A program made the position numbers and the translations under genes. This document shows, one piece after another, positions 4,752-62,849 of a stretch of DNA of 64,000 nt. Under the pieces are notes generated by a model that had not been told where the DNA came from, did no database searches, and saw only the letters and a program-made list of their open reading frames with translations. The DNA is from Candidatus Woesearchaeota archaeon (GTDB lineage Archaea; Nanobdellota; Nanobdellia; SCGC-AAA011-G17; JACPIM01). Each line of letters starts with the position of its first letter. The first letter of the stretch is position 1. The DNA lies in the NCBI GenBank assembly GCA_016188045.1, contig JACPIM010000006.1, forward strand, positions 26,137 through 90,136. The letters are read 5' to 3'.

Positions 4752-5462
4752 ATGAATAAAGAAATTTTAAAAGAAATTGGTTTAACAGAGAATGAATCTA
4801 AGGTTTATCTTGCTTTGTTAGAGTTAGGACCTAGTTTGGCTGGTCAAATATCAAGAAAAACAGGGTTGCACAGAAGAACAGTTTATGACACAACAGAAAG
4901 GTTAATCGAGAAAGGCTTAATTGGTTATATCTTAAAAAATAATAGAAGAGTTTTCGAATCAAGTTCTCCTAAAAGATTTCTTGAAGTTATAAAAGAGAAA
5001 GAAAATTCAATAAATGAGATTTTACCAGAACTATTATCTTCTTATACTAAAACAAGAGAAAAACAAGAAACTAATTTTTATAATGGCAAAGAAGGAATAA
5101 AAACGGTTTTAGAAGATCAAATAGAGACAGGAAAAGAGATATTGATTTTAGGAGCGAGTTCTTTAGCTTACGAAGTTTTACAATTTTATTTTAAATGGTT
5201 TGATAAAAGAAGAAAAGAAAAAAAGATAAAAGCTAGAATAATTTTCAGTAAAAATATAAAAAAAATAAATATTCCGTTTGCAGAAATTCGTTATCTTCCA
5301 GAAAAATATTCATCTCCCTTGGCAATTAATATTTATAGTGATAAAGTTGCCATAATATTATGGAGCAAGGAGTCTCCAATAGCAATAGTTATAAAAAATA
5401 AAGAGATTTCAGAAGGATATAGAAAATATTTTGAGTTGGTTTGGAAAAATGCTGGAAGATAA
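4752..5462 (+). CDS. TrmB-family winged-helix transcriptional regulator
   Basis: N-terminal LTENESKVYLALLELGPSLAGQISRKTGLHRRTVYDTTERLIEKGLI matches the TrmB HTH. A paralog lies at 39712..40452. Confidence 0.6.
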   Translation: MNKEILKEIGLTENESKVYLALLELGPSLAGQISRKTGLHRRTVYDTTERLIEKGLIGYILKNNRRVFESSSPKRFLEVIKEKENSINEILPELLSSYTKTREKQETNFYNGKEGIKTVLEDQIETGKEILILGASSLAYEVLQFYFKWFDKRRKEKKIKARIIFSKNIKKINIPFAEIRYLPEKYSSPLAINIYSDKVAIILWSKESPIAIVIKNKEISEGYRKYFELVWKNAGR

Positions 5463-6044: not shown

Positions 6045-9000
6045 TTGTGCGATGTATTTTTCATGGAAAAACAAAAGAAATATGCTAATTTTCAAGAGTC
6101 ATGCGAACTAAAAGCAAGAGAAGGGACTCCAGCCGAAAGAGCAGAAGCAAGAAAGTATCTAAAGCCTGGCAAGGTATCTCTAAAACTAGCTCTTGATGCT
6201 GAAAGGAGAAAGTTAGAAAGAGCTACAACTGCAAATGATATTGCATTAATTGAAAGATATGGAAATAATATAGAAAAAGCTGAAGAAATAGGAATGAGAA
6301 CAGGAGAGCTTGAATTGACTTATGAGGGGGCAGAAAGAATTTACAAAAAAGTTAAGCAAATGGTTAAAGAAGCAGGTGTTAGGTCAAACACTGATTATTT
6401 AGGAATGTTTGATGTTTTTGACCCAATAACTGAACAAGACTTCATATCTACAGGAATGCTTTGCCTTGTTCCAGAAGTTAGGGAAATAGTAATGAATAAT
6501 GCAAGCACATTGTACAGGATAGCTTTAACAGCTAATTCTCGAAGAAGTTCGGGTTATGCCTTGCCTACTAGACATAAATCAGAAAGATCTTTTGAAGATA
6601 TGATCAATTCTCCAATTAGAACAATCTATTCTTCCTTGCCCAAACCAAAAGATGAAACAGAAGAAGAATTTCAAAGAAAATTAAAAGTTTTGCTGGACAA
6701 AAAAGTAGAAAGAGAAACCTTTCCTTTATTTAGAGATGCTCCTAAAAAAGCAATAGAAACTTTAGATAGAAAAATAACTGAAACAGAAAATGAAGGCTTA
6801 AGAGAAGCATATCAAAGATTACAAGGAACTTATAAGGGCTACTTGGATTTTAAATTAGAAGGAACAAATTTCAATTTTAGAGACCCAAGAACAGGAGAAC
6901 GTGGAGTTCTTCCTTCTTTGCATCAAAGAAGTGCCTTATATCATTTAATGAAAGAGCAAAAATTGGGAATTTTTGATGGATGTGGGACAGGAAAAACTGC
7001 AATAGCAACTTTAGCTCAACCATTAATTGAAAAACAGACTGGAAAAAAACCAAAAGTTCTTGTTGTAGTCGGTACAAATCAGGCAAAAAAAGCATGGAAA
7101 AAAGGGCTTGTTGGAGATAGTTCTCAAAGATACCTATCTGAACCTCAAAATGTTTTTGTGGTCAATGGAGAAAGAAAAGATAACAGATTTATGGAAGAAA
7201 TTGAAAAAGCAGATTGGGTTGTAATGAATAAAGAACAGTTGATTGTTAAGTCAAATGGAGGAGAAAGATTATTTTATGAAGATTTAAGAGATATGGACTT
7301 TGATTATTTTATTTGTGATGAAGCTCATCATATAAAATCACATAGAAAAACAACCAAAGGAGGCAGGCCCACATTAAGCATAGCTGCCCAAGAATTAGCT
7401 AAAAGTGCAAGATATGTAGCTTTATTGACTGCTTCGCCTATTGCAGACAGGTTAAATGATTATGGAGTGTTAGCAAGCATTCTTCAGCCAGAAAGATTTC
7501 CAACTCCTCAAAGTTTAGCAGAAAAAATAAGGCAAAATCCAAGAGAATTATATACCTTTTTTCATGAAAAAACAGTAAGAAGAACTTCTGAAGAAATTAA
7601 TGAAGAACTAGATTGGGAAGAGCGAGAAATTCCCATAGAAATGACTCCTGTTCAAGAAAAAATATACAGGCATCTTGAATTAGAACAGCCAGAGCAGTTT
7701 TTACAGCAAGCAACAAAAGCTCTTCTTGATCCAAGGCTTGTTGACCCTGAAGTTTTAAGAAGAGCGGGAGTTTTAGGAGAAGTTGGAATAGAAAGCTCTG
7801 CGAAGTATAAAAGATTAGAAGAAATACTTACTTCTGATAAGAGCCCTATAACAAGAGGAGAAAAGTTTGTTATTTTTACAGAATTAAGAGAAGGAGTTAC
7901 AGAACAAGAGCATGAATATTTAAGAAAACGTTATGAAGAAATAGGCCATCCGGAACTTTATGCTCAACTGCAATTAAATTTAACTCTTGACAGGATAATA
8001 GAGAGAGCTATTCAAAAAAAGTTTGGCAAAGAGTTAAAAGTAAGAGTTTTAGATGGTTCAATAACAGACATAGAAGAAAAAGAAAGGATAGTAGATAGAT
8101 TAACTCAAGATTTAGCTGGATTGGTCTGCACAACAGATACGGGAGGAGAAAGCCTTGATTTTAGCTCAGCGAGTTATGCTGCATTTTTAAGTGAAGATTG
8201 CGCCCCTAAAACTTCAGAGCAAGCTTTGTCAAGGCTATTAAGAAAAGGGCAATCTAAAAAAGTTAGAATAGATTATTTTCGTGTTCCAGATTCTCTTGAT
8301 ACAAAAATTAGAGATTATGTTGAGGCAAAAAGAATAGTAATAAAAATTGCTACAGACGGCCACAGCTTGCTTGAAAAAGAGCTAGAGCTGCTTGAAACTT
8401 CTGGAAGAGAAAGATTAATTGAAATGGTAAAAAAAAGCGTTGGCGGAACATCTATAGACACTTATAAGGCTGAAGTCAAAGAATTAGATGATTTTGAAAC
8501 TAAAAAAAGAGTGAAGAAAGGCAAAAGAAGCAGAAGCATAATAACTGCAAGTGATTATGAAACAACAGATGCTCAAAGAGTCAATCAATTAATAGGACAG
8601 AATCCAGTAAGCTGTTGGTTTAACCAAGAATTTGTTGATTTTTACATGAGAACTTTACCAAATCTTTCTCCTCCAGTTGTTCATAAAGCAAGAGTTATTG
8701 ATTTAATAAAAAGAGCAAAAGAAAGACAAGTTGTTTTTCCAAAAAATGTTTTAGCAGAAGCTTCTGGACCTTCAATGCTTTATGAATCTTACCAAGAACT
8801 TTCTCATTTAATAGCTCAAGCAGGAAATTCAATTCCTGAAGTTACAGACAGAGATATTTCTGCTTTAATGTTAGAAAGAGGAAAGAATTCAAGAAAAATA
8901 CTCGGAAATATGAATGGAGATGCAAGCGCAATTACAGACAGAAGCTTTGACATGGTTGACAATGGCTCTCTTCTTTTATTGCCAAGTCCTATTGAAATCA

Positions 9001-55216: not shown

Positions 55217-55663
55217 TTAGTTTTTTTTAATAGTTATTTTTTCCTTAGTAAGCTCTTCAATGTTTTTAACAAACAGTATTGTTCTTTCAAAAAAACTTCT
55301 TAATTTTTCAAAATTAACATCCATCACATCAGTAATTAAAGCAACATTCTTTCTGTATTCATCTTTTCTCCTAAAAGGAGCAGCATCTAGTTCTTTCAAT
55401 AAAAGATAAAATTTCATGTCTGATTTAAATTCTGGTTTTCTCTCTTCTAGTTGCTTTACCCTTACTCGAGGAACATCAGATATTTCTTTAATCTTTAAAT
55501 ATTTTAAAGCATTTAAGATGGCAAAATCATAAGCGCTGATTAATCTTTTTATGGTATTCTTGATTACATCAACAGTTCTTGTATACTTCAAAGTAACATA
55601 AATTAGATGATCCGCCCTTTTCAATTCTTGTTCCGCACTTTCCTCTAACTCGTCAAATTCCAT
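55217..55663 (-). CDS. hypothetical alpha-helical protein, paralog of 55653..56129
   Basis: DHLIYVTLKYTRTVDVIKNTIKRLISAYDFAILNAL aligns with DHMVYVTYPLVNDPKLMFGIVDKLFNTLIDVITAVL. Confidence 0.35.
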   Translation of the reverse strand: MEFDELEESAEQELKRADHLIYVTLKYTRTVDVIKNTIKRLISAYDFAILNALKYLKIKEISDVPRVRVKQLEERKPEFKSDMKFYLLLKELDAAPFRRKDEYRKNVALITDVMDVNFEKLRSFFERTILFVKNIEELTKEKITIKKN

Positions 55664-56129
55664 TTTTTATTAATAACATATTAGCATTATTCATAAACTC
55701 TTTAGATTTATTTACATATTCCTTGACTTTCTTGTAATTTAGTGATTTAGTATTAAAACCAGAACTGCATATTACTAAATTGTCTCTTCTTACAAATTCC
55801 ATCGGGCTTCTTTTCCTAAACTCCTTAAATTTATTTAATTCTTCCAATAATAAAAATATATTTCCATTAAAATTATATCTTTTACCTATCACTTTTTTAA
55901 ATAATTCTAATTTTTCATTTAAACTTTCAGGAACATGACTTATCCTCTTATACAAATAGTCATAGTTTAATACCGCAGTTATTACATCAATTAAGGTATT
56001 GAACAATTTATCAACAATACCAAACATAAGTTTCGGGTCATTAACCAAAGGATAAGTAACATAAACCATATGATCAACCGTTTTAAAGTCATTTAAAGCT
56101 TTTTTCATCAAGGTCTCATACATTTCCAT
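55653..56129 (-). CDS. hypothetical alpha-helical protein, paralog of 55217..55663
   Basis: See above. The two genes overlap by 11 nt. Confidence 0.35.
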   Translation of the reverse strand: MEMYETLMKKALNDFKTVDHMVYVTYPLVNDPKLMFGIVDKLFNTLIDVITAVLNYDYLYKRISHVPESLNEKLELFKKVIGKRYNFNGNIFLLLEELNKFKEFRKRSPMEFVRRDNLVICSSGFNTKSLNYKKVKEYVNKSKEFMNNANMLLIKNGI

Positions 56130-56699: not shown

Positions 56700-57160
56700 T
56701 TTCTTATTTCATCATTTTTAAGTCTTTCTCTAATCATGGTAGGGTATCTACTTATTATATAATGCTTCAAGCAATGATTGTGCAGCACTAGATACAACTC
56801 CCTATCCTCAAATAAAGGAACAAAAGGAAGAAAAAATGAAAGTTTACCACCACAGTAGAGGTTCCAAGAGCACGAACTTTTAAATCTAAACTGCCATATT
56901 CTGTCCATGCCATAAAAAAGATTCCTTTTTCTTCCATATAACCATTAACGCACCTTTAGCATATAAAAGGTTTGCCATAATTATTAAAAATAGAGGTAGG
57001 TAGGTTATAAGCCACCTTCTGTTGAATCTAACGATTTTCATCATTAATGATTCATTTCAACATCCGACTAAGCGACCTTACCTTTTTTCTAAAGGGGTGT
57101 CTTGCACAAGTTGGGGCTCGCCGTTTCATCCATTTCTACTGAAACATCAGTTTTTTCAAC
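56700..57160 (-). ncRNA. candidate structured non-coding RNA downstream of promoter-like element C
   Basis: GC-richer non-coding block. The only ORF (56693..56908) has an implausible W/C/F-rich composition. Stem-loops such as GTTTC-N13-GAAAC. Fragments faintly resemble RNase P CR-IV/V (GGTAAGGTCGC, ACAGAATATGGCAGTTTAG) but no convincing CR-I was found. Confidence 0.2.
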
Positions 57161-57166
57161 ATCATT

Positions 57167-57205
57167 TTCCGCGAACGCTTTTTTTAAAAGGGTTCTTTAG
57201 CAGTA
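57167..57205 (-). promoter_or_regulatory. conserved promoter-like element copy C (minus-strand TTTTAAAAAAAGCGTTCGCGGAAAATG)
   Basis: TATA-like TTTTAAAAAAA followed by GCGTTCGCGG, as in copies A and B. Confidence 0.4.
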
Positions 57206-57282
57206 GCTGGTCTCGTTTCTGTGCGGTTGCCTTCCATTTCTGAAATCTGATTTGCATCAGACAACTCACTCCAGTAAAGGAG

Positions 57283-57336
57283 TTGATAAGAACTTTTGGT
57301 CAACCAACATAGGAGTTGATAAGAACCTTGGTTCTT
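57283..57336. repeat. two direct GGAGTTGATAAGAAC repeats, the second forming the hairpin ATAAGAACC-tt-GGTTCTTAT
   Basis: GAGTTGATAAGAAC occurs at 57290 and 57322. The perfect 9-bp inverted repeat sits around 57325..57344. Confidence 0.45.
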
Positions 57337-57552
57337 ATTGTGGATGGACTTTCCTCATTTCTTGACTGTTTAAAGTCGAAAAAACGATAGTTGAACACCT
57401 ACCTACTAAAATAATCTATATACTGTAGAATATAAATGTTTTGATTTTAGTGATTAACGTTGAAATAATTGATTTAGGCCTAGTTATGAAACTTTATTTA
57501 CATAGTAAAATCCAGAAAGCCTTATATATAATTTCGCCTTAATAATAACAAA

Positions 57553-58113
57553 ATGGATAGGAGAGTCAGTGAACTATCAATATTAGAGAAATTTGTAAAT
57601 AATTTTGTTTCTATAGTTGAAAAACATTGCAAATATGTGGTTGTTTCTGGTTTTGTTGCAATTGCTCATGGAAGAACAAGAGGAACAGAGGATATTGATA
57701 TAATAATAGAAAGATTAGATGAACTTAAATTTTATAAATTGCATAATGATTTATTGAAGAAAGGATTTGTTTGTGTTCAGGCAGATGATGCAAAAACAGT
57801 TTGTGATTATCTAAAAGATAATTTAAGTGTTAGGTATATTAAAAAAGGCACTTTTGTTCCAGAGATGGAAGTTAAATTTACAAAAGATTCATTAGATGAA
57901 TATCAAATACAGACAAGAAAAAAATTACCTCTTAGTGGCCTGGATATTTATTTTTCTACAATAGAAATGAACATAGCATCTAAAGAGGAATTATTAAAAT
58001 CTGAAAAAGACATGGAAGATGCAAAACATTTAAGAGAAGTTTACTCTGATGAAATAGATGAAAATGAGATTAATAAGATAAAAAAAGAAATTAAAAGATT
58101 AAGATTAAAATGA
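57553..58113 (+). CDS. Pol-beta-superfamily nucleotidyltransferase-like protein
   Basis: VVSGFVAIAHGRTRGTEDIDIII is NTase-like (G[SG]x9-13DxD). First gene of a five-gene overlapping operon. Confidence 0.4.
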   Translation: MDRRVSELSILEKFVNNFVSIVEKHCKYVVVSGFVAIAHGRTRGTEDIDIIIERLDELKFYKLHNDLLKKGFVCVQADDAKTVCDYLKDNLSVRYIKKGTFVPEMEVKFTKDSLDEYQIQTRKKLPLSGLDIYFSTIEMNIASKEELLKSEKDMEDAKHLREVYSDEIDENEINKIKKEIKRLRLK

Positions 58114-58307
58114 GAGATAAAACACATTCAGAACAGATTGTAAGATGGGCAAGATTTGTAAAAAACAATGATATTTCTACTTGGAAACCAATGGTTAAAG
58201 CTTTAACAGATTCACAAATAATTATGGCAAATAGATTTTATTCAAATTTGATAAAAACTGAAAAAGGAAAATTAAAAGCTGAAAAATTGTTAAAAAGGAA
58301 GCTATGA
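58110..58307 (+). CDS. small basic hypothetical protein
   Basis: 65 aa. Overlaps both neighbours (ATGA-type overlaps). Confidence 0.3.
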   Translation: MRDKTHSEQIVRWARFVKNNDISTWKPMVKALTDSQIIMANRFYSNLIKTEKGKLKAEKLLKRKL

Positions 58308-58308
58308 A

Positions 58309-58974
58309 ATGACCCTCAAACTATCACCTTCAAGTATAAACCTAATGCTAGAATGCCCTAGATGCTTCTGGCTTCAAATAGTCAAGAAAATAAAACGCCC
58401 TGAATCTATTTTTCCTTCTCTCCCTTCTGGCATGGATAAGATATTAAAAGAGCATTTTGATAGATTTATGGAAAAAAACGAATTACCTCCCGAAATAAAA
58501 GAGCATGTTAAAGATTGTAAATTATTCAATGATAAGGAAAAACTTAAAATTTGGAGAAATAACTTAAAAGGCATAGAGTATAAAGATGAGGAAAATGATA
58601 TTCTTTTGCATGGTGCAGTTGACAATTTACTAGTAAAAGGCAAAAAATTAATAGTTTTAGACTATAAAACTAGAGGTTTTCCATTAAAAGAAGATACTCA
58701 TGAGCATTATCAGGTTCAGCTTGATTTGTATAATTTTTTATTAAGGAAGAATAATTATGAAACAGAAGATTATAGTTATTTATTGTTTTATTATCCTAAT
58801 AAAGTATTAGAGACCGGAGAAGTTATATTTGATACTAGATTGATTAAGATGAAGACTAGTAGTTTAGATGGAGAAAAGATATTTAAGGAAGCTGTTAGAG
58901 TTATTAAGAATAATATGCCTGAAGCTGGAAAAGAGTGTGGGTTTTGTAGGCGAATAAATGAAAATGGACCATAG
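58309..58974 (+). CDS. Cas4/RecB-like PD-(D/E)xK nuclease with putative Fe-S cysteines
   Basis: N-terminal CPRCFW, core GAVDNLLVKGKKLIVLDYKT (D..D-Y-K), QVQLDLY (QxxxY), C-terminal CGFCRR. This four-Cys arrangement is like Cas4/AddB nucleases. No CRISPR array is nearby. Confidence 0.55.
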   Translation: MTLKLSPSSINLMLECPRCFWLQIVKKIKRPESIFPSLPSGMDKILKEHFDRFMEKNELPPEIKEHVKDCKLFNDKEKLKIWRNNLKGIEYKDEENDILLHGAVDNLLVKGKKLIVLDYKTRGFPLKEDTHEHYQVQLDLYNFLLRKNNYETEDYSYLLFYYPNKVLETGEVIFDTRLIKMKTSSLDGEKIFKEAVRVIKNNMPEAGKECGFCRRINENGP

Positions 58975-59326
58975 TACAAAGATTCAAGAATTAAAAGAAA
59001 AAATAAAACAATTTTGCGAGGATAGAGATTGGGATCAGTATCATGGAGCAAAAGAACTTTCAATAGGGGTAATTACGGAGGCTTCTGAATTATTAGAACA
59101 TTTTAGATTTAAATCAGAAAAAGAAATTGAAGAGTTTTTTAAAGATAATAACAAAAAGGAGAAAATTTCTGAAGAAGTAGCTGACGTATTATATTTCATT
59201 TTAAGATTTGCTCAAAGATATGATATTGATCTAGCAACCGTATTAAATAAAAAAATGGAAAAAAATGAACAAAAATATCCTTTAGAAAAATCAAAAGGGA
59301 GTAATAAAAAATATACAGAACTATGA
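58958..59326 (+). CDS. MazG-like nucleotide pyrophosphohydrolase (small all-alpha NTP-PPase)
   Basis: ITEASELLEHF and EEVADVLYFILRFAQRYDIDL match the MazG EExxE/D motifs. Confidence 0.6.
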   Translation: MKMDHSTKIQELKEKIKQFCEDRDWDQYHGAKELSIGVITEASELLEHFRFKSEKEIEEFFKDNNKKEKISEEVADVLYFILRFAQRYDIDLATVLNKKMEKNEQKYPLEKSKGSNKKYTEL

Positions 59327-61191
59327 GATTATACGAAGAGGCAGTTGAAAAATTCAAAGAAGATGTTTCTCAAAATAAAATAGCAGATAAGATCTCAAAT
59401 CAATATCAAGAATATTACAAAAGAAAGGCAAACCCATCAGAAGTTAGGTCTTGGGTTAATTCTTTAAATTTTGTTAAAAATGTTTTAGAATATGCTCCGA
59501 TAGAAAAAAATAGAATAATAGTTGAATATGAATTACCTTACTCAGAAAAAAGAATAGATGTTATCTTATTTGGAAAAGATGAAGAAGGAAATGATAATAT
59601 AGTTATAATTGAGTTAAAACAATGGTCTAATGAAAATGTCAAAGATTCAGAAAATGAAGGCAACGTTAGAGTAGATTATGGTAGATTTGAACAAGAATCT
59701 CCACATCCTTCGTTACAGATAGAGGGCTATTATTGGCACTTAAAGGATTTCTTAACAGTATTTGAAGAAGAGCCAAAAATAATGTTAAGTGCTTGTGTTT
59801 ATTGTCATAATTACACTAAAGGTGAAAACGAAGTTCTTTATTTACCCAAGTTTAAACCCAATCTAGAAAAATATCCTGTTTTCTCAAAACAAGAAATAAT
59901 CGATTTTGGAAAATATCTAAAAACCAAATTGGCTACAGATCCAGGATTAGAAGTATTCGGAAGATTCAAGAATAGTATTTTTAGACCATCTAAAAAATTA
60001 ATGAATCACGTAGGGGAGATGATTAATCAACAGCAAATCTTCCATTTAATTGATGAGCAAATCACCTCTTATAAAGCAATAATGCAACAAGCAAAGAATT
60101 TAACAAAATCAAAAGAAAAAGCAGTAATAATAATCAAGGGTGGACCTGGTACAGGAAAATCTGTAATTGCCTTAGAAGTTATGGGCGAATTAATGGAAAA
60201 AGGAATAAATGTTGTTCATGCTACAGGATCTTCTGCATTTACAAATACATTAAGAAAAATATTAGGAATAAGGGCAGCTAAACAATTTAAGTTTTTTAAT
60301 AGTTTTTTAAAGCATAAAGAAAACAGCATAGATGTCTTAATTTGTGATGAGGCTCACAGAATCAGAAAGACAAGTGAAAGTATGTACACACCAAAGACGC
60401 TAAGAACAGGAGAACCGCAAATAAATGAGTTAATTAGGTCTGCAAAGTTAAGCATTTTTTTCTTGGATGAAAAACAAGTTGTTAGACCAACAGAAATAGG
60501 AAGTTCAAAATTAATAAAAGAAGCAGCTGAAAGATTTGAAGCTAAAATCTACGAAATGCCAGAATTAAAAACTCAATTTAGGTGTGGTGGTTCTGGTGGT
60601 TACTTAGAAAAAATTGAGCAAATATTAAACATAAGAGAAGAAGGAACAGAATTGGAGTCGGAAGAAGAAATAAAAATGGAACTTAAAATTCTCGGTTCTC
60701 CACACAAGCTTAAAGAAATAATAGATAGAAAAAATAGAGAAAAGAAAAATTGCGCAAGATTAACGGCCGGATTTTGTTGGTCATGGAGTAAACCAAACAA
60801 AGATGGTTCTTTAGTTAATGATGTTAAAATAGGAGATTTTGAAATGCCCTGGGAAAATAAAGAGACCTTCTGGAAGTGGGCCACTGAAGATTCTGGAATG
60901 GAACAAGTCGGCACAGTTTATACTTCACAAGGATTTGAATTTGATTACATAGGGGTAATATTTGGAAATGATTTAGTTTGGAATAAAGAAACAAAAAGTT
61001 GGTATGCTAAACCAGAAAACTCTTATGATAATATGGCAAAAAGGGGAAATGACGAATTTGTAAACCATCTTAAAAATATTTATAGGGTCCTTCTATCAAG
61101 AGCACACAAAGGAGTTTATATTTATTTTATGGATAAAAATACTGAAGAGTATTTTATCAAAAAAGCCAGAGAATTAAAGCTTATTACCTAA
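59323..61191 (+). CDS. DUF2075-like protein: N-terminal PD-(D/E)xK nuclease-like motif plus P-loop NTPase/helicase-like domain
   Basis: RIDVILFG...IVIIELKQW (D...ELK), Walker A IIKGGPGTGKS, Walker B VLICDEAHRI, and a C-terminal YTSQGFEFDYIGVIFG block typical of the DUF2075/Schlafen-like ATPase family. Confidence 0.6.
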   Translation: MRLYEEAVEKFKEDVSQNKIADKISNQYQEYYKRKANPSEVRSWVNSLNFVKNVLEYAPIEKNRIIVEYELPYSEKRIDVILFGKDEEGNDNIVIIELKQWSNENVKDSENEGNVRVDYGRFEQESPHPSLQIEGYYWHLKDFLTVFEEEPKIMLSACVYCHNYTKGENEVLYLPKFKPNLEKYPVFSKQEIIDFGKYLKTKLATDPGLEVFGRFKNSIFRPSKKLMNHVGEMINQQQIFHLIDEQITSYKAIMQQAKNLTKSKEKAVIIIKGGPGTGKSVIALEVMGELMEKGINVVHATGSSAFTNTLRKILGIRAAKQFKFFNSFLKHKENSIDVLICDEAHRIRKTSESMYTPKTLRTGEPQINELIRSAKLSIFFLDEKQVVRPTEIGSSKLIKEAAERFEAKIYEMPELKTQFRCGGSGGYLEKIEQILNIREEGTELESEEEIKMELKILGSPHKLKEIIDRKNREKKNCARLTAGFCWSWSKPNKDGSLVNDVKIGDFEMPWENKETFWKWATEDSGMEQVGTVYTSQGFEFDYIGVIFGNDLVWNKETKSWYAKPENSYDNMAKRGNDEFVNHLKNIYRVLLSRAHKGVYIYFMDKNTEEYFIKKARELKLIT

Positions 61192-61851
61192 CCAATTCCA
61201 GTATCTATTTTTTCCAACGATAACATGATCTAGAACTTGTATACCTAACATTTTCCCAGTGTCAATCATTTTTTTAGTAATCTCAATGTCTTCATTAGAA
61301 GGACTAGGATCTCCACTAGGATGATTATGCACTAAAACAATAGAATTTGCACTTTCTCTAATAGCATAATTAAATATCTCCCTAGGATGTATCAAAGAAG
61401 AATTCAAGCTTCCAACAAATATCTCTTTTTCACCAATAATCTTATTCTTAGTATCTAATAAAACAACCCAAAAAACTTCTTTTTTTAAAGGAACAAACCT
61501 ATCAACAAATCTATTAAACACATCTTTAGGGCTATTAAAATAACCAGTATTAAAACCGCCTTTCTTTAATTTATTAGTTCTTCTGAATAATTCAAATAAA
61601 CTCATAATTTTAGCAGCTTTAAATTCATTCTTAATTTCATTATGTAATTCATTTAAGCTTAAATCAGCTAATCTATGAAAGTTATATTTTTTCAGTAGTT
61701 TATTAGCCAAATCTATTGCACTTTCATCTTTTTCAACTCCAGAACCAAGAATTAAAGCTAATAACTCCGCCTCATTTAATTTTTCAACACCTTCTCTCTT
61801 CAATCTAGTCAAAGGTTGTGTAAAAAAAGGCATTTCTTCTATTTTCATCAT
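61174..61851 (-). CDS. radC: RadC-like JAB/MPN domain protein
   Basis: N-terminal HhH (LLALILGSG) and the JAMM motif HNHPSGDPSPSNEDIEITKKM. Convergent with DUF2075 and overlaps it by 18 nt. Confidence 0.7.
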   Translation of the reverse strand: MMKIEEMPFFTQPLTRLKREGVEKLNEAELLALILGSGVEKDESAIDLANKLLKKYNFHRLADLSLNELHNEIKNEFKAAKIMSLFELFRRTNKLKKGGFNTGYFNSPKDVFNRFVDRFVPLKKEVFWVVLLDTKNKIIGEKEIFVGSLNSSLIHPREIFNYAIRESANSIVLVHNHPSGDPSPSNEDIEITKKMIDTGKMLGIQVLDHVIVGKNRYWNWLGNKL

Positions 61852-62000
61852 TATTTTAATATCAACTCATTTTTAATGTATTTCTAAGAATAAACATATA
61901 TTTTGTAATTTAGTAGTTTCACACTAGTTTATTATGAGTTATGAGTCATAAAAAGATTTAAAAACATAGTTATCCTTAGAATTATCAGGAGAACATAAAA

Positions 62001-62240
62001 ATGCAAGAAGCTCAAATACTTAAAATGTTAACCACGTTTGATTTAGACTTGGAGTGGTTTAAAGAGAACTTAACCTCTTTAAAGGAAAATTATGACCAAA
62101 ATTATGTAGCTATAGAGAATACTGAAGTCATAGTACATGATAAAAATATAGATAACCTAATCACAAAACTAAAACAACTAGGCAAAGACCCATCAAAAGT
62201 ATTCATACAATTTGTTTCTAAAGTTAAATCAATATTTTGA
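62001..62240 (+). CDS. hypothetical small protein
   Basis: 79-aa ORF overlapping the following protease gene. Confidence 0.25.
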   Translation: MQEAQILKMLTTFDLDLEWFKENLTSLKENYDQNYVAIENTEVIVHDKNIDNLITKLKQLGKDPSKVFIQFVSKVKSIF

Positions 62241-62688
62241 TAATCAGATGAGAATTCCTCTAATACTAGTTGATGGAACCCCACGCGTTAATGCTATCCT
62301 GTTTTCCAATCGTTATCATTTTGGTTTAGCAAGGATAACTTTTGTTGTAGATACAGGAAGTAATGCTACTTTTATTGGTGAAGAGGATTTTGCAGGATTA
62401 CAAATTTCAATGGATACGTTGCATAAAGAAGAGGCATTTAAAATGGCGGGATCAAAATATAATCTCTTGCTAGGAAAAGAGGGAACATTATTATTCAAAA
62501 CAAATGAAAATAAAACTACACGTATTGAATTGCCAAATATCCCCATAGCCAAAACAATCAGCAAGAAAGCTTTAGACATAGAAGGTATACCATCCATACT
62601 TGGAACAGATTTTCTAGAAAAAAATAAACTTACTTTATATTTTAATCCAAGTAAGGATCTGATGTATTTGGAAAAAGAAGAATACTAG
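62212..62688 (+). CDS. retropepsin-like (clan AA) aspartic protease
   Basis: ILVDGTPRVNAILFSNRYHFGLARITFVVDTGSNATFIG contains the D-T/S-G-A catalytic motif context. Confidence 0.5.
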   Translation: MFLKLNQYFDNQMRIPLILVDGTPRVNAILFSNRYHFGLARITFVVDTGSNATFIGEEDFAGLQISMDTLHKEEAFKMAGSKYNLLLGKEGTLLFKTNENKTTRIELPNIPIAKTISKKALDIEGIPSILGTDFLEKNKLTLYFNPSKDLMYLEKEEY

Positions 62689-62693
62689 GAAAT

Positions 62694-62725
62694 CATAAGA
62701 ACGTAGTTCTTATCTAATTAAAAAT
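62694..62725. repeat. hairpin ATAAGAAC-gta-GTTCTTAT, the same inverted repeat as at 57325, about 130 nt downstream of the 23S 3' end
   Basis: AATCATAAGAACGTAGTTCTTATCTAATT. Confidence 0.45.
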
Positions 62726-62849
62726 TTATCAACTTTCCAAATAAGGCTGTGTATTTATTTAGAAGAGATTAAAAAAAGATTCATTAGAAAAGATACTGTT
62801 TAGATATTTTAATAAAGTAAAAGCATAGGCAATTAACTCTAAAAGTTTT

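Follow-up and report, generated by a model that had tools for sequence, protein, structure and literature searches.

The 64-kb window analysed here, a stretch of a Woesearchaeota genome (contig JACPIM010000006.1), carries a gene block of approximately 5 kb wedged between the RNase P RNA and 23S rRNA genes. This block represents a small accessory island, and its site, flanked by the RNase P RNA gene and the rRNA operon, is a hot spot. It is well established that the conserved unit within it consists of two genes, p4 and p5, encoding a MazG-like nucleoside triphosphate (NTP) pyrophosphatase and a DUF2075-type nuclease-helicase, respectively. Taken as a whole, the locus is read, with moderate confidence, as a mosaic accessory island in which p4-p5 (hereafter the cassette) is the conserved functional unit and is probably directed against invaders. 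Genes p1 to p6 are arranged as follows.

57553..58113, plus strand: p1, 186-aa MenT/AbiEii-like minimal nucleotidyltransferase (GTEDID signature, structure model)
58110..58307, plus strand: p2, 65-aa partner of p1 (open reading frame, ORF, found after every p1 homologue examined)
58309..58974, plus strand: p3, solo Cas4-like PD-(D/E)xK nuclease (PDDEXK_1, 5.9e-12)
58958..59326, plus strand: p4, DCTPP1-type MazG-like all-alpha NTP pyrophosphatase (PF12643, 1.3e-14)
59323..61191, plus strand: p5, 622 aa, PD-(D/E)xK (NERD-like) nuclease plus DUF2075/SLFN-g3 superfamily 1 (SF1) helicase (PF09848, 2.2e-83)
61174..61851, minus strand: p6, full-length RadC/YicR (UPF0758 N-terminal domain plus JAB domain; NF000642)

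An initial annotation of the window had placed p1-p5 and the RadC gene at exactly these positions and had described the five plus-strand genes as overlapping by 4-17 nt each. The overlaps were found for p1/p2 (4 nt), p3/p4 (17 nt) and p4/p5 (4 nt), and not for p2/p3, which abut (last position of p2 58307, first of p3 58309). The minus-strand RadC gene had rightly been recognized as a convergent RadC-like JAB gene that overlaps the 3' end of p5; this overlap is 18 nt.

The p4-p5 pair, its enzymes and RadC

Conservation of the pair was followed in 80 genome loci with p5 relatives 41-81% identical, sampled from DPANN and other archaea, the candidate phyla radiation (CPR), Omnitrophota, Gammaproteobacteria, Acidobacteriota, Bacillota and other groups. 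A MazG homologue lay directly upstream of the p5 relative in 70 of the 80 loci. The gap between the MazG stop codon and the helicase start ranged from -7 to +6 nt in 56 of 60 cases, with a 4-nt ATGA overlap in 20. The pair was kept also in relatives 25-35% identical, found on Bacillus, Priestia and Halalkalicoccus plasmids and in a Microcystis phage record. The megaplasmids of B. cereus and B. thuringiensis carry genes for an NTP pyrophosphatase, an HNH protein and a DUF2075 protein, and on the Priestia plasmid genes for an MrcB_N protein, MazG and DUF2075 stand among restriction-modification (R-M) genes. The p5 superfamily is modest in size, with 620 clusters at 50% identity (E <=1e-30). With up to 64% identity to p5, bacterial homologues surpass many archaeal ones (50-54%), which argues for cross-domain transfer. 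The neighbourhood search proposed with the initial annotation, for co-occurrence of MazG or of the Cas4-like nuclease with DUF2075, gave the following answer: MazG and DUF2075 are linked in Archaea and Bacteria, and RadC is linked as well, while the cassette accompanies the Cas4-like p3 in only a small part of the p3-centred loci described below.

The identification of p4 as a MazG protein proved right. Its PF12643 match reaches 54.6 bits against a cut-off of 27, and it matches the mouse and human DCTPP1 structures at 7e-18. In 59 cassette-linked partners the residues R23, W25, H29, E41, E44, E73, D76, K99, Y107, K118 and Y119 are invariant, and E47 (88%) and N103 (98%) are nearly so. These thirteen conserved residues, including the catalytic E41, E44, E47, E73 and D76, are identical in mouse DCTPP1, and the whole catalytic set of DCTPP1 (RS21-C6) is common to p4.

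For p5, the proposed D...ELK nuclease motif followed by Walker A and B motifs, and the DUF2075/Schlafen-like assignment that rests also on the PF09848 match, were borne out. The residues D79, E97 and K99, the Walker A sequence GGPGTGKS (G273-S280) and the DEAH motif (D342-E343) are invariant in 25 homologues, and the N-terminal domain matches Pfam NERD at 1.2e-4 (22.9 bits against a cut-off of 22.1). Judged by residue conservation, both cassette enzymes are predicted to be catalytically competent. The best match of the p5 model in the PDB, as found with Foldseek, was SLFN11, and the SF1B helicases RecD2, Dna2 and Dda were also retrieved. The p5 helicase falls into the Pfam family SLFN-g3_helicase, which it shares with the group 3 Schlafen proteins (SLFN11, SLFN14); these have an N-terminal RNase domain, whereas p5 has a PD-(D/E)xK nuclease in that place. 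A sequence search of the PDB gave nothing useful for a profile of p5 and its homologues, nor for p1, p2 or p3. We know of no operonic or physical link between DCTPP1 and Schlafen proteins.

Two longer p5 homologues (P0110 and P0241, ~795 aa) end in a C-terminal LexA/UmuD-type S24 peptidase domain (GKSMEP...KK). The presence of this domain hints at a control by self-cleavage, which might respond to DNA damage or to single-stranded DNA.

The RadC protein p6 passed the equivalog score of NF000642 (201 bits against a cut-off of 180) and contains PF20582, PF04002 and an HNHPSG motif. RadC was present in 12-13 and p3-like genes in 13-14 of the 80 p5 loci. At least four gene orders relative to the cassette were seen: RadC convergent downstream in Woesearchaeota; RadC-MazG-DUF2075-SRA-HNH in three gammaproteobacterial metagenome-assembled genomes; MazG-RadC-DUF2075 in three other loci; and RadC downstream in one locus. 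The gene is convergent with the p5-type gene in loci L001-L004 and L156/157 and co-directional within the operon in bacteria. Since the association is kept while the order is shuffled, a functional link is favoured. An SRA-HNH endonuclease gene occurs in 10 of the 80 p5 loci, mostly as the next gene on the same strand, and the four-gene operon thus links the cassette to an endonuclease reading 5-methyl- or 5-hydroxymethyl-cytosine. The RadC-MazG-DUF2075-SRA-HNH operons are tightly packed and co-directional (L019 297-3908, L020 6941-10561 and L025 2210-5824).

Clustering of the neighbours gave an HNH_2 protein, a second DUF2075 paralogue, Fic and a YoeB-like pair as other recurrent partners, the remainder being unique; 150 sampled neighbour ORFs matched 158 Pfam families. 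The p5-type and PDC-S41-type DUF2075 paralogues often stand in tandem (L081 and L031/L035/L039/L054), and in L081, a Hymenobacter canadensis plasmid, the tandem adjoins genes for a DNA methyltransferase and a DUF4747 protein. No integrase or transposase travelling with the cassette was found among the neighbours of the p5 loci, and a DNA-level search found no E. coli carriers. Viral carriage of p5 amounts to one IMG/VR contig and 4 phage records. A viral origin was considered and found no support, with one IMG/VR locus containing p5 and none of the IMG/VR loci containing p1 or p3 with the patterns used.

Borders and composition of the island

The flanks of the block, the two genes that follow RadC and the hairpin at the right end are listed below.

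56996..57406, minus strand: archaeal RNase P RNA gene, left flank (Rfam RF00373, 110 bits against a gathering score of 84)
62001..62240, plus strand: p7, small DUF5678 protein (PF18929, 1.4e-5)
62212..62688, plus strand: p8, retropepsin-like aspartic protease, weak match (gag-asp_proteas, 2.2e-4, below cut-off)
62695..62713, no strand: right hairpin, ATAAGAAC-GTA-GTTCTTAT, 7 nt past the p8 stop codon
62842..64000, minus strand: archaeal large subunit (LSU) rRNA, 3' part, right flank (Rfam RF02540, 704 bits)

The left flank consists of housekeeping genes, for exosome subunits, SBDS, proteasome alpha, HisRS, NAC and Sec61beta, and on the right the LSU rRNA, from 62842, confirms that an rRNA operon adjoins the block. 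The same RNase P RNA and LSU rRNA flanks were found in locus L002, from a Woesearchaeote whose p5 is 80% identical. There the interval between them is 15.1 kb (L002 1897-17869) and its cargo is largely unlike that of the window: it comprises genes for a NYN protein, an RNase_H_2-fold protein, MazG-DUF2075-RadC, a YoeB-like pair, a DUF3800 protein, a DUF6036 nucleotidyltransferase with a winged helix-turn-helix partner, an AAA_14-DUF4143 ATPase and a LAGLIDADG protein. The LAGLIDADG gene adjoins the rRNA, and other toxin-antitoxin (TA)-like and nuclease genes lie in the interval. This different cargo between the same flanks upholds the view of the block as an accessory, defence-type island at a variable site.

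At the DNA level, L001 and L002 resemble the window from the start of MazG (58964-58984) to a point close to the start of RadC (61775-61803); these limits mark out MazG-DUF2075-RadC as a unit of ~2.85 kb. Both loci have the cassette without p1-p3. The reverse situation is found in L090, a close relative, which has p1-p2-p3 at 88% nucleotide identity and lacks MazG-DUF2075-RadC; the place of the unit is taken by cassettes with two MNT-HEPN-like pairs and a NYN-like gene, set between three copies of the p3 3' end. In L017 the cassette is next to homologues of exosome/SBDS/proteasome genes that in the window lie 12 kb from it, and the insertion sites of the cassette differ even among Woesearchaeota. 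Conservation of the operon in all relatives within a non-variable region, which would have spoken against an island, was looked for and not found, L002 and L090 differing at the site or in content. It is therefore well established that the island is a patchwork of at least four independently moving modules: p1-p2, p3, p4-p5 (with RadC along in this lineage) and p7-p8.

The initial annotation had regarded the block, together with a retropepsin-like protease, as bracketed by identical hairpins. Both hairpins with ATAAGAAC/GTTCTTAT arms exist, at 57319-57338 and 62695-62713, although neither marks a border. The left one sits, according to the Rfam alignment, within a lineage-specific 73-nt insertion of the RNase P RNA; being part of that gene, it is no bracket of the block. 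This RNA has a length of 411 nt in the window against 300 nt in L002, and its extra sequence, noted at 57271-57338, includes a 33-nt stretch in tandem duplicate (GGAGTTGATAAGAAC twice) as well as the hairpin. The right hairpin and its flanks are kept in L090, where they stand 3' of the p3 3' fragment, and for this reason it is taken as a gene-end element, not as an island border; it looks like a reusable one. Two window segments, 62687-62744 (the right hairpin and its flanks) and 61861-61911 (non-coding, upstream of RadC/p7), are 93-94% identical to L090 6794-6897, where they are adjacent, in the order opposite to that in the window, directly after the displaced p3 3' fragment. The whole window holds 12 copies of the octamer ATAAGAAC against 4.4 expected, a count reached in 0 of 100 shuffles, and only the two sites noted form hairpins. 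A role of the hairpins as att-like island borders was rejected in view of the position of the left one within the RNase P RNA, the gene-end element in L090, and the lack of a longer repeat pair and of an integrase. Neither an integrase nor a longer flanking repeat pair was found at the block.

No CRISPR-like array of interspaced repeats is present in the 64-kb window, as had been stated for the surroundings of the block. The protease call for p8 stands as a weak match only; p8 also matches PADLOC PDC-M08B at 5.9e-4. The listed p8 start is a TTG that overlaps p7, and an ATG at ~62248, 8 nt past the p7 stop codon, is a likelier start. Outside the island, at 55217-56129, two adjacent and overlapping minus-strand genes (148 and 158 aa) appear to be mutual paralogues and have no Pfam match.

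The p1-p2 pair and the p3 nuclease

p1 had been assigned to the Pol-beta nucleotidyltransferases of the MNT/AbiEii/CBASS kind. It has no Pfam or NCBIfam match, hence no membership by sequence in the AbiEii/DUF1814 profiles, and its sole profile match is PADLOC PDC-M21B (2.5e-5). All of its 1277 homologues are annotated as hypothetical, and the signature S32-G33...G44-T45-E46-D47-x-D49 is invariant. The AlphaFold2 model of p1 (predicted local distance difference test, pLDDT, 85) found the MenT1 toxin 8an5 as its best Foldseek match (E 1.2e-5, probability 1.0, template modelling score 0.60), a protein of near-equal size (184 vs 186 aa). Fold and signature thus support a MenT-like nucleotidyltransferase. 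The CBASS part of the assignment is not supported: none of the PADLOC models of CBASS cyclases (CD-NTases) matches p1 at E <=0.1, and p1 as a CBASS-like nucleotidyltransferase was rejected on that ground.

An overlapping ORF of 62-67 aa follows every p1 homologue examined, in unrelated contexts. In Methanoperedens the pair stands among metabolic genes, and in a Pacearchaeote between those for RadA and eIF-2B. In L173-L176, from another archaeon, p1-p2 (p1 86% identical) was seen alone between the aEF1A and aEF2 genes (~10001-10755 in L173), a striking intrusion into a cluster of core translation genes. The product of p2 has no recognisable domain, no PDB match and no similarity to known antitoxins. 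The pair is regarded as a putative TA-like module, on the strength of the signature, the model and the constant partner. It resembles MenAT1 (Rv0078A/B) in the match of p1 to MenT1, and MenAT1/AbiE systems in general in the G-S...D-x-D nucleotidyltransferase signature and the obligate small partner gene. It differs from them in that p1 has no sequence match to the AbiEii/DUF1814 models, and in that p2 lies downstream of p1 and bears no detectable likeness to known antitoxins.

p3 had been called a Cas4-like nuclease with a QxxxY motif and N- and C-terminal cysteines. These elements are all present: C16, C19, D105, D118, K120, Q137, Y141, C210 and C213 are conserved in 88 homologues, and the PD-(D/E)xK core with QxxxY (D105, D118, K120, Q137, Y141) is conserved at >=97%. 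The likeness to Cas4 and RecB-family nucleases thus covers the core, the QxxxY motif and four cysteines. Cas4 hidden Markov models reach ~1e-9, yet the TIGR00372 (Cas4) score of 34.7 bits lies below the curated cut-off of 65. The iron-sulphur (Fe-S) cysteines of Cas4 follow the pattern C...CxxCx5C, whereas those of p3 follow CxxC...CxxC. Moreover, p3 has no cas genes or array beside it, and its relatives adjoin R-M, not cas, genes. A match to phrog_31195, a PHROG of unknown function, was found at 1.4e-37.

The context of p3 was examined in 80 metagenomic loci centred on relatives of 65-84% identity. MazG or DUF2075 was nearby in 6 and RadC in 8 of the 80. The recurrent neighbours are type IIG, type I and type III R-M genes, methylases, an SNF2 helicase and Fic. 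The possibility, raised with the initial annotation, that p3 is a housekeeping repair nuclease in core synteny was looked at and rejected in view of these neighbours.

The ends of the p3 gene were observed in duplicate around inserted cassettes in L090, L091, L156/L157 and L164/L165; the L090 copies of the 3' end lie at 2216-2427, 5184-5306 and 6539-6750. Elsewhere, short copies of the p3 5' end were seen to precede a Fic gene and some others. The p3 gene ends look like a recombination or insertion hot spot, with no integrase seen.

These data bear on the idea that the five plus-strand genes and RadC make up one integrated, previously unknown defence system, as the initial annotation had proposed for a single translationally coupled operon. 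The ORFs are indeed packed and overlapping on one strand, and the order p3-MazG-DUF2075-RadC recurs in the DPANN loci L003, L004, L156 and L157, even with p5 only 43% identical; in the bacterial loci L029 and L030 p3-like nucleases lie 1-2 kb from the cassette. Against this, p1 and p2 were found near a p5 relative in 1 of 80 loci, at a distance of 4.5 kb, and stand alone elsewhere; the cassette is near p3 relatives in only 6 of 80; and p1-p2-p3 occurs without the cassette (L090), as the cassette occurs without p1-p3 (L001, L002). A single system of this composition is accordingly very improbable, and the claim of one five-gene coupled system was abandoned. Tight overlap of ORFs in a small archaeal genome is no proof that the genes form one system.

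Candidate functions of the cassette

The gene combination is without a name in the searchable literature, as had been supposed, with the qualification that the MazG+DUF2075 pair itself was shortlisted earlier and is still unvalidated. Under the name 'Pyrophosphatase', Millman et al. (2022) listed a 98-aa pyrophosphatase with a 643-aa DUF2075 protein (Table S2, bioRxiv 10.1101/2022.05.11.491447). It belonged to a set of 45 candidates that had been predicted on the basis of defence islands and were challenged with 26 phages (10.1101/2022.05.11.491447). In that candidate, as in p4/p5, a MazG-like gene is directly upstream of the DUF2075 gene. The DUF2075 protein of their construct SG192 is 34% identical to p5 (E 2e-62; 408 aligned columns, with 399 SG192 residues available), and the pyrophosphatase is 45% identical to p4 (E 7e-27). 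The published constructs are bacterial and appear in a supplementary table only, whereas the copy in the window comes from an archaeon and is linked with RadC and a Cas4-like nuclease. A full-text literature search for links of DUF2075, Schlafen, Nhi or RadC with MazG or pyrophosphatase gave nothing relevant beyond this supplement.

The domain layout of p5 also recalls single-gene defence proteins. Nhi of S. epidermidis (SERP2475) has been described as a nuclease-helicase acting on phage DNA, and a single-gene 'Nhi-like' protein of B. cereus with a nuclease+DUF2075 layout was validated by Millman et al. (10.1101/2022.05.11.491447). A 2019 survey reported DUF2075 NTPases adjoining modification-dependent endonucleases. 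With Nhi, AbiO and the Nhi-like protein p5 shares an N-terminal PD-(D/E)xK-type nuclease followed by an SF1B/DUF2075 helicase, and there is a weak alignment between the p5 N-terminus and the beginning of the Nhi-like protein (E 4e-5). In contrast to these single-gene systems, p5 has a conserved MazG partner. For p5, PADLOC, one of the checks proposed for the block, returned partial matches only (PDC-S41, AbiO and Nhi), and for p1 only the PDC-M21B match. The domain calls made beforehand were largely right. The Nhi and AbiO models match only p5 residues 228-421 at ~54 bits (Nhi 53.5 bits over 242-421). The best PADLOC match of p5 was PDC-S41 (2.1e-23), like p5 a DUF2075 protein of ~650 aa; the match yields 80.5 bits and covers residues 3-326 only, whereas true members reach 8.9e-288. 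PDC-S41 is a paralogue family, members of which are sometimes found directly downstream of a p5-type gene. With profile matches that are partial only, p5 was rejected as a member of PDC-S41, Nhi or AbiO.

The chances that the cassette has a defence role are about even. Such a role is favoured because the pairing is conserved, its spread is patchy and crosses domains, its sites are variable, its partners are of defence type, and the pair was selected independently by Millman et al. The horizontal spread of the cassette into variable sites often places it next to nucleases that recognise modified cytosine. For the steps of the mechanism, the substrates and a physical complex we infer, rather than demonstrate, the following. 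p5 would load on invading or replicating foreign DNA, unwind it and degrade it in the manner of Nhi. p4 would hydrolyse dCTP (deoxycytidine triphosphate) or 5-modified dCTP, by which the invader would be starved or the synthesis of modified DNA blocked; alternatively, p4 may clear modified nucleotides freed by DNA degradation. DCTPP1 prefers 5-modified dCTPs. RadC, the SRA-HNH endonucleases and the Cas4-like nuclease would be optional accessories.

Several points weigh against a defensive cassette in a mosaic island. In the published assay SG192 (Bacillus firmus LK28) gave no protection against the 26 phages (10.1101/2022.05.11.491447) and SG193 (B. thuringiensis Lr3/2) could not be cloned (10.1101/2022.05.11.491447); the authors themselves considered that unverified candidates may still be defensive (10.1101/2022.05.11.491447). 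The defence signal around the cassette is modest, with many cassettes adjoining ordinary genes, and PADLOC v2 contains neither a p4 model nor the full-length p5 family. The p5 model has a pLDDT of 70, with low confidence in the N-terminal domain. The recurrence of the p3-MazG-DUF2075-RadC block means that p3 may be more than a bystander. Finally, the RadC link and the S24 peptidase fusions fit a role in DNA damage equally well.

The last point leads to the main alternative, a genome-maintenance or replication-stress module in which the pyrophosphatase would clean the deoxynucleotide pool and the helicase-nuclease would process damaged or stalled DNA. Both the recurrent RadC link and the C-terminal LexA/UmuD-type domains suit it, as do the negative phage test and the many ordinary neighbour genes. 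DCTPP1 is a house-cleaning enzyme, and the SLFN11-type helicase and DCTPP1 of eukaryotes offer a loose comparison to such a module. The distribution of the cassette is, however, patchy with high cross-domain identity, there is no conserved synteny and the insertion sites vary even among Woesearchaeota, and plasmids carry it beside R-M, SRA-HNH and MrcB_N genes. Maintenance as the function of the cassette is for these reasons held to be unlikely.

The cassette could also be selfish cargo, that is an addiction module or a tool of inter-element competition or counter-defence, in which MazG would neutralise or regulate a toxic nuclease-helicase. The failure to clone one homologue and the tight, TA-like translational coupling would be expected of such a module, and carriage on plasmids, in one phage record and on one IMG/VR contig points in the same direction; the cassette is also embedded among TA-like modules in the window and in L002, and L090 can be cited as well. 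On the other hand, viral carriage is confined to 1 viral contig and 4 phage records, and no integrase or transposase stands alongside. Strict conservation of the catalytic residues of MazG speaks for a protein that works as an enzyme and does not merely bind. Selfish cargo is consequently rated as an improbable explanation, more so than genome maintenance.

Returning to the defensive reading, a wider version of it is put forward only tentatively: MazG-DUF2075, with RadC, SRA-HNH and Cas4-like proteins as optional additions, might be a widespread archaeal and bacterial immune system against viruses with modified cytosine, in which foreign DNA is destroyed while dCTP or 5-modified dCTP is hydrolysed, the published negative result being due to the host and phage panel. 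If true, no earlier defence system would have had a DCTPP1-type enzyme as its basis, and one prokaryotic immune operon would be connected with two human proteins, namely DCTPP1 and the Schlafen-type helicase. The cassette is directly testable in cultured carriers, namely B. thuringiensis and B. cereus, both with megaplasmids (pCH_181-a of B. thuringiensis, WP_000389841.1 / WP_021728772.1), Priestia aryabhattai (NM1_A2 plasmid), Parageobacillus caldoxylosilyticus (NBRC 107762) and Halalkalicoccus jeotgali (B3 plasmid 1).

Should the cassette be defensive, it would add a DCTPP1-type nucleotide-pool enzyme to the theme of Nhi-like nuclease-helicases and connect modified-cytosine viruses, pool sanitation and DNA degradation in a way that can be tested. 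The theme would then reach the DPANN archaea, whose immune repertoire is poorly known, and the cassette would suggest that two eukaryotic families of genome-guardian enzymes were first paired in prokaryotes.

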